Assembly: GCF_003334385.1 (NCBI RefSeq) | Contig: NZ_QOWN01000063.1 | Source of the DNA: Escherichia coli | GTDB taxonomy: Bacteria > Pseudomonadota > Gammaproteobacteria > Enterobacterales > Enterobacteriaceae | Reading direction: 5' to 3' (one strand) | DNA: 16,740 nt | Shown here: in pieces, positions 1 through 9,214 of the stretch | How the letters are laid out: every line of letters begins with the position of its first letter | How positions within the stretch are numbered: the stretch's first letter is position 1 | Program-made: the position numbers and the translations under genes | The notes under the pieces: model-generated | Told to the model about the DNA's origin: nothing | The model's input: the letters and a program-made list of their open reading frames with translations, nothing else | Databases searched by the model: none

Positions 1-63
1 GTTACCAAAGCTGTTCATATCCGGTACCTGATTTTCTCCTGTCCCCACATTCCTCTTTGCCGC

Positions 64-89
64 TTCTCCCAAACCAACCTTTTAGAAAA
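64..89. promoter_or_regulatory. Candidate hix/gix-like invertase crossover half-site upstream of pin
   Basis: TTCTCCCAAACC-AA-CCTTTTAGAAAA lies about 55 bp upstream of the invertase start codon. The left half and AA core resemble recalled hix/gix crossover sites (hixL about TTCTTGAAAACC AA GGTTTTTGATAA). The right half is not a good inverted copy, so this is tentative. Confidence 0.2.
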
Positions 90-143
90 TGCAGTTATTC
101 GGCTCAGATGGCATGATCCCGGATTTTTACAGGGTTATTTCTC

Positions 144-698
144 ATGCTTATTGGCTATGTACGTGTGTCAACAAATGACCAGAACACAGATCTACAACGT
201 AATGCGCTGAACTGTGCAGGATGCGAGCTGATTTTTGAAGACAAGATAAGCGGTACAAAGTCCGAAAGGCCGGGACTGAAAAAACTGCTCAGGACATTAT
301 CGGCAGGTGACACTCTGGTTGTCTGGAAACTGGATCGGCTGGGGCGCAGTATGCGGCATCTGGTCATTCTGGTTGAGGAGTTGCGCGAACGTGGCGTTAA
401 TTTTCGCAGCCTGACGGATGCTATTGATACCAGTACCCCAATGGGGCGCTTTTTCTTTCATGTGATGGGGGCCCTGGCTGAAATGGAACGAGAACTGATT
501 GTTGAACGAACAAAAGCTGGACTGGAAGCTGCTCGCGCACAGGGACGAATTGGTGGACGTCGTCCCAAACTTACACCAGAACAATGGGCGCAGGCCGGAC
601 GATTAATTGCAGCAGGAATTCCTCGCCAGAAGGTGGCGATCATCTATGATGTTGGTGTATCGACACTGTATAAGAAGTTTCCGGCCGGAGATAAATGA
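144..698 (+). CDS. pin: Serine recombinase, Pin/Gin/Hin/Cin-family DNA invertase (184 aa)
   Basis: ATG at 144. N-terminal catalytic motif MLIGYVRVSTNDQ with the nucleophilic Ser, a resolvase/invertase core (DTLVVWKLDRLGRS) and a C-terminal HTH (VAIIYDVGVSTLYKK). Length and sequence are closely similar to PinE/Gin as recalled. Confidence 0.9.
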   Translation: MLIGYVRVSTNDQNTDLQRNALNCAGCELIFEDKISGTKSERPGLKKLLRTLSAGDTLVVWKLDRLGRSMRHLVILVEELRERGVNFRSLTDAIDTSTPMGRFFFHVMGALAEMERELIVERTKAGLEAARAQGRIGGRRPKLTPEQWAQAGRLIAAGIPRQKVAIIYDVGVSTLYKKFPAGDK

Positions 699-700
699 AA

Positions 701-742
701 CCGTAGCACGTCGTATGCAAGATCGTGCTGCGGTTTATGCTT
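701..742. terminator. Hairpin between convergent pin and GIY-YIG genes (putative bidirectional rho-independent terminator)
   Basis: 10-bp stem CCGTAGCACG (701-710) pairing with CGTGCTGCGG (724-733), including one G-U pair, around a 13-nt loop. It is followed by TTTATGCTT on the + strand and by a T-rich run (complement of 690-700) on the - strand. Confidence 0.45.
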
Positions 743-755
743 ACCACTTGAAGAT

Positions 756-1625
<870 letters not shown>

Positions 1626-1709
1626 CTAACCCTTTGAATTTACATAGCGCAAAAAGATACCTTTCCTCATAATGTGAGCTAATTTTATGTTTCGTTTGAT
1701 GATCGGGTC

Positions 1710-1770
1710 GGTCTCGAAAACCGGAGTAGGGGCAACTCTACCGGGGGTTCAAATCCCCCTCTCTCCGCCA
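1710..1770 (+). pseudogene. tRNA-Ser(CGA) 3' fragment (serU-like; anticodon arm, long variable arm, T-arm, acceptor 3' strand and CCA), att-remnant-like
   Basis: GGTCTCGAAAACCGGAGTAGGGGCAACTCTACCGGGGGTTCAAATCCCCCTCTCTCCGCCA matches the 3' two-thirds of a class II tRNA-Ser with anticodon CGA. No 5' acceptor strand (GGAGAGA) is present upstream, so it is a fragment, not a gene. Confidence 0.6.
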
Positions 1771-2352
1771 CTTTATCAATGACTTATCTCCTGACTTCCC
1801 GCCTTGCTTTTCCTAAACAGAACAATCGTAGAATATTCTTGAAGGGTTAGATCGTCACTGTTTTCTGTTCGATACTGTGACATTCAGCACTTGATTCGCT
1901 ATGGATCTGACAGGAAGGTTTTGAGCGAAAATCTGCAGTTATTCAGTCGTTTTCTTATCGGTCACCATTATTCTTTTAGACATTGATCCTACAAAGCTGC
2001 CGCAAAGTTGGTGGTGGGAACTGAAGTTGCGTAGAGAAGGGGTCAATACCCGGAGGCAAACATGGGCTGGCAAAAGTGTAGCGGCATTAGGCGCAGCTAT
2101 TTAGCCTAGTTATGTTTTATGAAAACTTGATATCATATAAGTGTCTTACTTATTGGCTGTAAATAAGTTTTTCCTAAGGAATTGTTTCTTGAGTATCATT
2201 TGTAACTGTAACGGAATTTATAATCCTTTGCTTTATTGTTACGGTATTTTTTATCACACCCTATTTTTAGTGGTTTTTTATACTGAAGTTTGGCAAAGTG
2301 AACTTTATATACATATACTTCATCCTGGTTTCAGTTAAATTGGGTGGATGAT

Positions 2353-3096
2353 ATGGCAACTACATGTTCAGTTATATTGATTTTGGAGTCCTTTGATGTT
2401 TATTTCGGAAAAGAGAGTGTGTTTCTGGAGAGAGGTTCATCTGTACTTGTCGACTCTAGCTCTAGAGATTTTTTCCTGACATATCCTGAAAGAGTGATAG
2501 TGGCGGATTTTGGCGCTGAGTTTATTAGTCGCTATTTGAAAGCTAATAACTTAAGGGATATTTCTGATTGTAGGGAATATCCATCTTATTTAAAAATAAA
2601 CTTTGCTGACTTCAGTTTAATTAAAGGATTAATTAGTTGGGCTAATCACTGTGCTGAATACATAGAAATTTTTGATGAGTCTATTGCTTTTACATGTCTC
2701 TCTGCATTTTCTTCTGAAAAACAATTTGGAGTATTTCTGTTTGGATGTTTGAAAAGCACAGGGGCTAAAGTTAAAACGATTATTCATACGGATTTATCTG
2801 CACCATGGCGTCTTAAGGATATATCATCAAGATTATATCTCAGCGAAAGTTTACTAAAGAGGAAATTGAAAGAAGAGGGGGTATCATTCAGTAAGATCAT
2901 ACTTGATGAGAGGATGCAAATGGCTGAATATTTACTCAGCACTCGTTGTTATCCTATTAGTAAAGTAGCTAAGGTCTGTGGTTATGCCAGTGTCTCATAC
3001 TTTACTTATGTATTTAGACGTTATTTTGGTGTTTCTCCAAGTCAATACTCTCAGAGGAGTTCAGAAAGTAAAATTCTTACTCACCAGGGAATCTGA
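2353..3096 (+). CDS. AraC/XylS-family transcriptional regulator (Rns/AggR/ToxT-like size, about 247 aa) in AT-rich DNA
   Basis: C-terminal double HTH typical of AraC family (WRLKDISSRLYLSESLLKRKLKEEGVSFSKI...VAKVCGYASVSYFTYVFRRYFGVSPSQY). Strongly AT-rich codon usage unlike the flanking core genes. The ORF track starts at GTG 2344; the first ATG is at 2353 with a GGGTGG purine tract upstream. Confidence 0.75.
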   Translation: MATTCSVILILESFDVYFGKESVFLERGSSVLVDSSSRDFFLTYPERVIVADFGAEFISRYLKANNLRDISDCREYPSYLKINFADFSLIKGLISWANHCAEYIEIFDESIAFTCLSAFSSEKQFGVFLFGCLKSTGAKVKTIIHTDLSAPWRLKDISSRLYLSESLLKRKLKEEGVSFSKIILDERMQMAEYLLSTRCYPISKVAKVCGYASVSYFTYVFRRYFGVSPSQYSQRSSESKILTHQGI

Positions 3097-3100
3097 TCAT

Positions 3101-3600
3101 TGTTCTTGCCCCCTTATTTCCAGACAGGGGGTGTATCTTAAGTTAACGTTACCCGCTGACGTCGATATTCTCGCGGAGAGCGATAACCCAACGCACTGTG
3201 CGGATGGTGTTCATTGTAATGTTCGATCGCCACTGCAAGATTATGCAATGCCGTTCTTACATTCGGTTTCGGCATGAACGCGATGTAGTCTTCCTTCATC
3301 GTTTTCACGAACCTTTCTGCAATTCCATTACTCTGAGGACTGCTGATTGCCGTTGTGCAGGGCTCCAGATTCAACTCTCTGGCGAACTGCCGTGTTTCAT
3401 GCGCTCTATACGCTGAACCGTTATCTGTCAGCCACTGGATGGACTGTTCCGGTACTTTATCGCCGAAGCGTTTTTCTATCGCTCCTAACATGACATCCTG
3501 CACTGTCGCTTTATCGTAACCTCCCGTGCTTGCGGCCCAGTCTATGGCTTCACGATCGCAACAGTCCAGGGCGATTCATCTGGGCCAATCCTCGCTCATA
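3101..3600 (-). mobile_element. Truncated IS3-family (IS2-group) insertion sequence remnant
   Basis: Terminal sequence TGTTCTTGCCCCCTTATTTCCAGACAGG at 3101-3128 resembles the IS2 inverted-repeat end (TGGATTTGCCCCTATATTTCCAGACATC as recalled). It is followed by the C-terminal part of an IS2 InsD-like transposase. The inner boundary is uncertain and no second terminal repeat was identified. Confidence 0.65.
3138..3575 (-). pseudogene. IS2 InsD-like (IS3 family OrfB) transposase, C-terminal fragment only
   Basis: Translation ...[31 protein letters not shown]...[51 protein letters not shown]...[18 protein letters not shown] has the DDE-core C-terminal signature of IS2-type transposases. The frame is closed by a stop at 3576-3578; the N-terminal half and the OrfA gene are absent. 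Confidence 0.7.
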
Positions 3601-3850: not shown

Positions 3851-3895
3851 ATTCGTAATGCGAAGGTCGTAGGTTCGACTCCTATTATCGCACCA
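3851..3895 (+). pseudogene. ptwF: tRNA-Thr(CGU) 3' fragment (thrW-like; corresponds to the ptwF pseudo-tRNA of K-12), island right-end att remnant
   Basis: ATTCGTAATGCGAAGGTCGTAGGTTCGACTCCTATTATCG-CACCA matches tRNA-Thr from the anticodon loop (CGT) to CCA with one G missing near the 3' end. No 5' half is present. It lies immediately before the core yagP-pao genes. Confidence 0.7.
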
Positions 3896-4021
3896 TTAAA
3901 ATCAAAGAGTTACCCCATATTTAAATACACCACGTTTCCTCCTGTGCCGTATTTGTGCCATTGTAACCTTGGCAATTCATCAAAATACTGTTCTGACATC
4001 AGGCAGTGCAGGTGCAGACAT

Positions 4022-8528: not shown

Positions 8529-9214
8529 GATTTTATCTCCCCCGCAGCATCTTCAATGGCGGCAAGGATGTTAGCGTATGCACCACAGCGACAGATGTTG
8601 CCGCTCATACGTTCACGGATCTCATCGGCAGTTGTTTCTGGAGCGGAAACCAAATCGACCGTGACGTGACTGGGAATGCCGTCCTGAATCTCTTTTAGCA
8701 CCGCTACTGATGAGCAAATTTGCCCGGAGGTGCAGTAGCCGCACTGGAAGCCATCATGCTTGATAAAGGCCGCCTGCATGGGGTGAAGATTATCTGGCGA
8801 ACCCAGGCCTTCAATGGTGGTGATCTCGGCCCCCTGATGCATGACTGCAAGCGTCAGGCAGGCATTAAGCCTGCGACCATTGACCAGCACGGTACAGGCT
8901 CCGCACTGTCCGTGATCGCAACCTTTCTTGGTACCGATCAAATGCAGATTTTCACGCAAAGTGTCCAGTAGCGTGGTTCGGGTATCCACCTCAAGCTGCT
9001 CGGTTTTGCCGTTCACCTTCAGTGTCAGGGGCATTATCTCTGGCGCGGGTGTAGCTGCCGGAACGCTTGCCGCCAGCGTAGAATGAGGATAAACCACGGC
9101 GGTCGCCGCTGTTGCGGCGCTCACTTTAATCAGATCGCGACGGGTCAAACTTAAATCGTGCGGCTCGTGCTTCCCAACCCGATTATCTTCGGGGTATTCG
9201 CCTTGGTTGCTCAT
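8525..9214 (-). CDS. paoA: Aldehyde oxidoreductase iron-sulfur small subunit with twin-arginine (Tat) signal peptide (229 aa)
   Basis: N-terminal Tat motif [17 protein letters not shown], and two [2Fe-2S] Cys motifs ([19 protein letters not shown]...CRCGAY). GGAGG Shine-Dalgarno sequence upstream of ATG 9212-9214. Confidence 0.95.

Follow-up and report, generated by a model that had tools for sequence, protein, structure and literature searches.

The DNA analyzed here, a 16,740-nucleotide stretch of an Escherichia coli contig (NZ_QOWN01000063.1; hereafter the window), raises a simple question at its left end. A fragment of a tRNA-Ser gene is followed by 330 bp, positions 1771 to 2100, that lack any sizeable open reading frame, and these in turn precede an AT-rich region and a gene for a transcriptional regulator. 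An earlier note on the sequence had suggested that a segment so placed, immediately downstream of an attachment-site tRNA fragment, could carry a small RNA, integrase-binding arm sites, or residual sequence of an island end. We asked what the segment is, where it came from, and whether it is likely to have a role in its present location. The best reading that we can offer is that 1709-2101 would be a fossil attR junction from serU, displaced from its original locus and fused by a deletion to the stub of an IS630 element, which together form the left margin of a cassette carrying patE.

The absence of ORFs was confirmed on both strands. No ORF of at least 60 aa overlaps 1771-2100, and the small ORFs that do so are found at 1687-1782 (plus strand, 31 aa), 1776-1883 (minus strand, 35 aa), 1891-1986 (plus strand, 31 aa), and 1939-2073 (minus strand, 44 aa), the last being the longest. 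The segment was then shuffled in place 1000 times. In 565 of the shuffles, too, every overlapping ORF fell short of 60 aa, and the median length of the longest ORF was 57 aa. The lack of ORFs in 1771-2100 therefore carries no signal; it is a correct observation that matches the expectation from chance and is by itself evidence of nothing. The segment had also been described as not extreme in composition, and this is so, as GC content ranges from 0.38 to 0.55 within it versus 0.27 to 0.31 in the AT-rich region that follows from about 2105 (2105-2352, upstream of the regulator gene on the plus strand).

Window positions 1600-2350 were compared by megablast with 5,426 complete E. coli genomes. 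Positions 1700-2048 were matched in 5,423 of these, with identities of 96 to 98% among the matches listed, most of which fall at an annotated tRNA-Ser gene; only 524 genomes also match the rightward extension toward patE. The tRNA-Ser fragment that had been noted by eye proved to be the last 62 nt of serU, encoding tRNA-Ser(CGA), which occupy 1709-1770 on the plus strand from the anticodon stem to the CCA end and are identical to K-12 serU at 62 of 62 positions. This fragment represents the core (O) of an attachment site. Its left end at 1709 is the same start as that of the pseudo-tRNA at attR of serU prophages (loci L004 and L010, the latter having an annotated tRNA-Ser pseudogene at 9169-9230), and it retains the whole anticodon stem-loop, the usual crossover site of tRNA-integrating phages. 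ARAGORN called no complete tRNA anywhere in the window.

Directly after the core, positions 1771-2048 (plus strand, 278 bp) are a copy of the serU-yodB intergenic DNA, equivalent to the B' side of attR. The copy is colinear with the K-12 locus (L002, 3063-3340) and aligns to it without gaps and with 10 mismatches; across native alleles of the flank, the number of mismatches varies from 4 to 10, again with no gaps. Homology to the native serU region stops at 2048, 278 bp past the core. Just beyond the copied 278 bp, and absent from the window copy, the native K-12 spacer has a GC-rich hairpin (CGCGGC...GCCGCG; L002, approximately 3350-3395) followed by a T run on the minus strand. This hairpin lies some 240 bp after the yodB stop codon and looks like a terminator for transcription from the yodB side.

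The remainder of the segment is derived from an insertion sequence. IS630 is a Tc1/mariner-like element of 1153 bp that targets CTAG and duplicates TA. Positions 2049-2101 on the plus strand match the right-terminal 53 bp of this element (nt 1101-1153) with about 96% identity, the reference being an annotated IS630 end at 3001-3053 of locus L003. The intact IS630 in L003 (1901-3053, 1153 bp) has matching terminal inverted repeats and is bordered by C-TA...TA-G at its two ends. The window has the same arrangement: the outer end of the stub reads ...GCAGCTATT-TA-G, with the terminal inverted repeat passing into the TA duplication of a CTAG target (...GCGCAGCTATT-TA-G) as in the intact copy, such that 2102-2103 are the target duplication and 2104 the G of the target at an old insertion. 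Only nt 1101-1153 are present, and both the transposase gene and the left end are absent. Because the inner junction is inside IS630 and these parts are gone, the stub is immobile, and because the 2048/2049 junction falls inside the element, it arose by deletion and not by insertion. As delimited, 1771-2100 comprises the 278 bp of host flank copy and 52 bp of the IS630 stub.

Comparison with near-identical annotated loci placed this DNA away from serU. In the left part of these loci, proA is followed by an intact thrW, an integrase gene, and a complete lambdoid prophage with a contractile-tail module. The right part then runs through pinE, the GIY-YIG gene, the serU fragment, its flank, the IS630 stub, the AraC-family gene, and an IS3 remnant, and at the right margin the IS3 remnant is followed by a thrW fragment (3851-3897 in the window), a yagP remnant, and paoD. 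Intact thrW with an adjoining integrase gene is present at the left end of the prophage both in strain 2824 and in O157:H7. Judged from this gene order, the window holds the right-hand end of a lambdoid prophage integrated in thrW.

The neighbors of the segment fit into this layout as follows. The pinE gene (144-698, plus strand) encodes a Pin-type DNA invertase of a prophage tail-fibre inversion system, annotated by RefSeq in near-identical loci as a site-specific DNA recombinase. It is followed by an ORF on the minus strand (756-1529) for a LEM-3-like GIY-YIG domain protein, the final prophage gene on the right-hand side according to near-identical loci. To the right of the segment, the AraC-family regulator gene (2353-3096, plus strand) has 99.7% DNA identity to the gene in the same place in O157:H7 Sp1/CP-933H. 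PatE is an AraC-like regulator encoded by the OI-8 prophage as z0321 (PMC10877973), and, from position and family, the gene in the window is very probably that of PatE (Z0321, O157:H7 O-island 8 / CP-933H). Next are the IS3-family transposase remnant with its integrase core (3138-3574, minus strand), supported by an ORF and by near-identical loci, and the thrW 3' fragment (tRNA-Thr, plus strand), which matches the thrW 3' end of an O157:H7 locus (L006) and is the true attR of the resident prophage. In the window, remnants of serU and thrW, two distinct tRNA genes, lie only 2.1 kb apart.

Several other features of the surroundings were observed. In O157:H7, a P4-like element, Sp2, follows the thrW fragment that serves as attR. 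Window 16-100, just upstream of the pin gene, has an inverted copy of 84.7% identity about 1.8 kb upstream in O157:H7 (L006, 10150-10231), and the inverted pair probably represents the crossover sites of the invertible tail-fibre segment. Farther to the right, in the yagU-ykgJ intergenic region, 10219-10415 on the plus strand is a full-length match to the Rfam family IS009 (RF02111), scoring 182.5 bits against a gathering threshold of 117.

Strain 2824 was especially informative, as it shares 99.2% identity with the window across 16.6 kb and carries, in addition to the serU-derived DNA at thrW, an intact and prophage-free yodB-spacer-serU-mtfA locus 1.77 Mb away. The two copies in this strain differ at 8 of 340 positions. 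By this comparison, positions 1709-2048 are evidently a second copy and not the native serU locus. Since the window lies at thrW/paoD, and the native serU is intact elsewhere, the serU junction appears to be a displaced fossil, and it is without a serU attL partner on the same element. The designation of the tRNA-Ser fragment as an att site was correct in that the serU fragment is real, but the resident prophage is inserted in thrW and does not use this fragment as its att site. Annotators should be aware of this, and also that the 340 bp duplicated from the serU locus could confuse genome assembly or att-site prediction.

We then examined whether the junction left of 2048 occurs at native serU, using a test sequence in which window 1450-2048 was joined to the native K-12 continuation. 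In 7 genomes this sequence is present over its full or almost full length, and there the native flank, preceded by the GIY-YIG gene, spacer, and serU fragment, leads on into yodB. Strain MB15 has a complete prophage at native serU. On its left side the order is mtfA, serU, phage arm, and integrase, and on its right side pinE, GIY-YIG gene, spacer, serU fragment, native flank, and yodB, the GIY-YIG gene again being the last before attR. The right end of the MB15 prophage matches window 16-2048 at 94.8%. At the MB15 attL, the DNA following serU is unrelated to the window flank, with 196 mismatches in 340 positions. Because that DNA is unrelated, the attP of the phage lacks the 278 bp, and the flank is therefore of host origin (B'). 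Window 1530-2048 thus corresponds, by its match to real lysogens, to a complete P arm-core-B' junction of a serU-specific phage that has been displaced, in which 1530-1708 is the phage-side P arm, as identified from the native-serU junctions in the 7 genomes. In MB15, three hypothetical genes (L011, 7683-9934) also separate serU (attL) from the integrase gene of its serU prophage; these look like a left-end cargo module.

This assignment bears on two of the suggestions made for the segment. As the 278 bp are the bacterial B' side, and the attL arm of a real serU lysogen is unrelated to them, integrase arm sites are not expected in 1771-2100, and that suggestion is not sustained; surviving arm sites, if any, would lie leftward in 1530-1708. 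A search of the segment for arm-type repeat motifs gave only two pairs of 9-nt direct repeats and three pairs of weak inverted repeats, which are likely due to chance. Residual island-end sequence came closest of the three suggestions, but the DNA is a copied host flank with an IS630 end and not phage or island sequence.

The serU fragment, flank, IS630 stub, patE, and IS3 remnant make up a 1.87-kb block (1708-3574). About 524 of the 5,426 complete E. coli genomes have it, and O157:H7 is among the carriers, with the block in Sp1/CP-933H. Its right limit at 3574 is common to different phage types, as determined by local BLAST against the lambda-type loci L008, L009, and L015, in which it is matched as one block. 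The block is also present as one piece, with approximately 99% identity, in the phage genome records ev099, mEp332, and PhiR70_1, the virion origin of which is as stated in the records; the stated hosts are K-12 MG1655 for mEp332 and E. coli C for PhiR70_1, both of them laboratory strains. In ev099, the block lies between a tail-fibre assembly gene and int-xis, in the accessory region adjoining attP, and lysogens of the ev099 type are situated at att-lambda, beside ybhB-bioA.

When the block copies of the window, O157:H16 Santai, strain 2824, O157:H7, and ev099 are compared with each other, only 0 to 3 of 340 positions vary, while they differ from native alleles at 4 to 10 of 340, the nearest native allele being that of strain 7CC. 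All patE-linked copies start at one and the same internal IS630 position, and this shared junction together with the 0 to 3 differences points to a single origin. The distribution fits a single capture of the patE block, which would then have spread horizontally. A chromosomal islet at serU was considered as the source and rejected, as patE directly behind an intact native serU occurred in none of the 5,426 genomes. Nor did any of these have an intact IS630 beside patE, as a precursor would, or a longer flank. The relic helps to date the O157:H7 patE cassette and to trace it: the cassette would have arisen a single time, been joined at one stage to a serU prophage, and later spread to phages of thrW and att-lambda specificity. 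The exact junctions at 2048/2049 and 3574 provide a convenient marker for its lineage.

Three different left arms join the block within 2 nt of the left edge of the core. The GIY-YIG type, seen in the window and O157:H7, is carried by about 426 genomes (524 less the 97 and the 1 of the other two types); the lambda stf/tfa type, seen in ev099 and in lysogens at att-lambda, by 97 genomes; and the S24-peptidase/gtr type by mip270_04. Each of these arms is also known at a native serU attR, the GIY-YIG arm in 7 genomes, the lambda stf/tfa-type arm in 7CC and others, and the S24-peptidase/gtr-type arm in 3 genomes. Because the right-hand junctions are identical, while the left arms are different yet authentic, the simplest account of the block would be a single capture and later exchange within or beside the serU core. 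The first informative SNP is 210 nt into the block, and the SNPs fit homologous exchange through the 340-bp repeat and integrase-mediated exchange alike. In mip270_04, genes of the locus of heat resistance (psiE-GI, kefB-GI, trx-GI, hdeD-GI, and yfdX2; L021, 17658-24524) were observed in the thrW region, sharing a thrW island mosaic with the patE block of the third left-arm type.

The same left-hand junctions give rise to the strongest competing explanation, in which the serU core, with or without the 278-bp flank, is still an active docking site, serving either as a secondary attachment site for serU-specific integrases or as a 340-bp patch of homology to the chromosome. If so, different phages would gain the patE acid-resistance cassette through the serU core, and the joining of three unrelated phage arms exactly at the core would be explained. 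The authenticity of the three arms at native serU, the right-hand junctions common to all, for which exchange at the core or close by offers the most economical history, and the retention of the full anticodon stem-loop are consistent with this proposal. A nested or tandem junction, in which the GIY-YIG arm and core are followed by a phage P' arm, was however found in 0 of 5,426 genomes, and mip270_04 has only a decayed right-end remnant with no partner attL. Furthermore, exchange in the past does not prove present activity or selection, and the SNPs do not distinguish homologous from site-specific exchange. We regard present docking activity as unlikely, although it fares best among the alternatives, and a fossil junction without current use is the reading that we prefer.

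The position of the segment, 250 to 580 bp upstream of the patE start codon, could also indicate that it belongs to the upstream control region of patE, acting as a distal promoter, a transcription factor site, or an H-NS nucleation site. In keeping with this, it accompanies patE in about 524 of approximately 645 patE-positive genomes. Yet the sole promoter-like site in the area (2290-2319; TTGGCA-18-TATACT, 10 of 12 matches) is located 34 nt before the patE ATG, in the AT-rich stretch and outside the segment, which is itself not AT-rich. In variants with IS1 at 2149, the segment is severed from patE, and the patE gene is still intact. The segment being copied from unrelated intergenic DNA and an IS end, any role would be accidental. 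A regulatory contribution to patE is improbable on these grounds, and the relic junction remains the better account. In strain PA2, which is O157-like, the patE homologue was found annotated as frameshifted (L016, 5754-6496) with the upstream relic intact.

Considerably weaker is the proposal of a small RNA, for example one derived from the tRNA 3' trailer as at native serU. The segment does begin directly after the tRNA 3' end, and the native trailer must be transcribed for some distance. However, the Rfam scan that had been recommended, performed with Rfam 15 at gathering and permissive thresholds on the window and native K-12, gave no match within 1771-2100; the nearby matches were partial and tRNA-like, over the serU fragment, and all fell below gathering. 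A scan for promoter-like and terminator-like sites returned none in 1771-2100. On RNA folding, the plus strand was weaker than every shuffle (z = +2.08) and the minus strand was average (z = +0.27), such that neither strand folds better than shuffled sequence. The window also lacks the 5' half of the tRNA gene and its promoter, and the IS630 deletion truncated the copy at an arbitrary position. A small RNA encoded here is accordingly hard to credit, and we discount that suggestion.

The earlier note had named lack of conservation and lack of predicted structure as observations that would count against a functional element. Predicted structure is indeed lacking, but conservation is present, and positions 1771-2048 are conserved because they are a copy of core-genome intergenic DNA. 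The flank diverges among native alleles at up to 10 of 278 positions, which in our judgement, rather than by a neutral standard, is about that of unconstrained E. coli intergenic DNA. A cross-species scan of genome collections, with a pattern including 7 flank bases, returned only three E. coli contamination contigs (L018, L019, and L020). These come from metagenome-assembled genomes labelled Bacteroides, Collinsella, and Bacillota, are 99 to 100% identical to the K-12 serU region, and are likely to be E. coli contamination of the bins.

A small protein of 35 aa, read on the minus strand from 1883 to 1776, deserves about as little credence as the small RNA. The ORF opens with an ATG and is uninterrupted in each of the 7 native and prophage alleles compared, although the stretch is nearly invariant, so that its integrity is weak evidence. 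Against a coding function, it has no NCBIfam match, its exact sequence is absent from a collection of 15 billion proteins, and RefSeq has no annotation between serU and yodB. Both substitutions inside it (1792 and 1802) alter the amino acid, and inspection by eye revealed no obvious Shine-Dalgarno sequence upstream. Least probable of all, an inversion or translocation between serU and thrW prophages in this strain, which the related prophage right ends at both sites might suggest, was rejected, as strain 2824 has the block together with an intact, prophage-free mtfA-serU-flank-yodB locus, the serU-region homology ends after 278 bp, and records of free phage genomes contain the block.

Having weighed these alternatives, we consider it probable that 1771-2100 is relic serU flank plus an IS630 stub and is without function of its own. 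In the history that best accommodates the displaced junction, the host-side half of a serU attR, consisting of the P arm, the 62-nt core, and the 278-bp flank, would have left serU on the right end of a phage. The route may have been an imprecise excision of the lambda bio kind in a serU lysogen, or some other illegitimate event there; for imprecise excision in particular, which we infer from the end product, the chances seem about even. The captured junction is now carried in the accessory region of lambdoid phages, with the tail genes on one side and the true att site on the other. A separate IS630 would have inserted at a CTAG site upstream of patE, and a later deletion extending from inside IS630 into the serU flank would have fused the two relics. 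The block could then have moved between phage lineages through recombination in or next to the serU core, with the DNA of the segment carried as presumably neutral cargo upstream of the patE promoter.

A search of the literature on serU/yodB and on serU/thrW/Sp1 gave no description of this segment. The kind of thing it represents is ordinary, consisting of phage mosaicism, pick-up of host DNA, and decay of an IS element. The main value of the analysis is the removal of a false lead, as the segment would be a junction scar and not a hidden gene or RNA, and the block offers a clean natural case of a temperate phage retaining host flank from an earlier integration site.

The junction most closely resembles the serU attR of tRNA-integrating temperate phages such as SerU-LTIIb (KU052038), in which the 62-nt core is likewise the serU 3' end, flanked on the left by a genuine phage arm and on the right by colinear host DNA. 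The arrangement agrees base by base with that of real serU lysogens. The junction in the window differs from these in lying off serU and without an attL partner, in having a flank cut after 278 bp, and in residing inside prophages that use thrW or att-lambda as their own site. In its outer portion, the segment resembles IS630 in having the terminal 53 bp of the element, bordered on the outer side by the TA and G to be expected from the target, and differs in having neither transposase gene nor left end. With the moron or accessory cassettes at the right ends of lambdoid prophages, of which patE in OI-8/CP-933H is an example, it shares both place and the 1.87-kb block, but the segment itself is only the non-coding left margin of the cassette. 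Specialized-transducing phages such as lambda bio are products of imprecise excision. The phages carrying the block are similar to lambda bio in that host DNA is contiguous with an attR in the phage genome, as found in the ev099, mEp332, and PhiR70_1 records, and in that this DNA is beside the non-essential region between the tail genes and att/int. Unlike lambda bio, only 278 bp of non-coding host DNA are left, and the arrangement is widespread and fixed rather than a rare variant in a lysate. The carrier phages here also hold a complete int-xis of other specificity, and because of this difference at least one further recombination would have been needed after capture.
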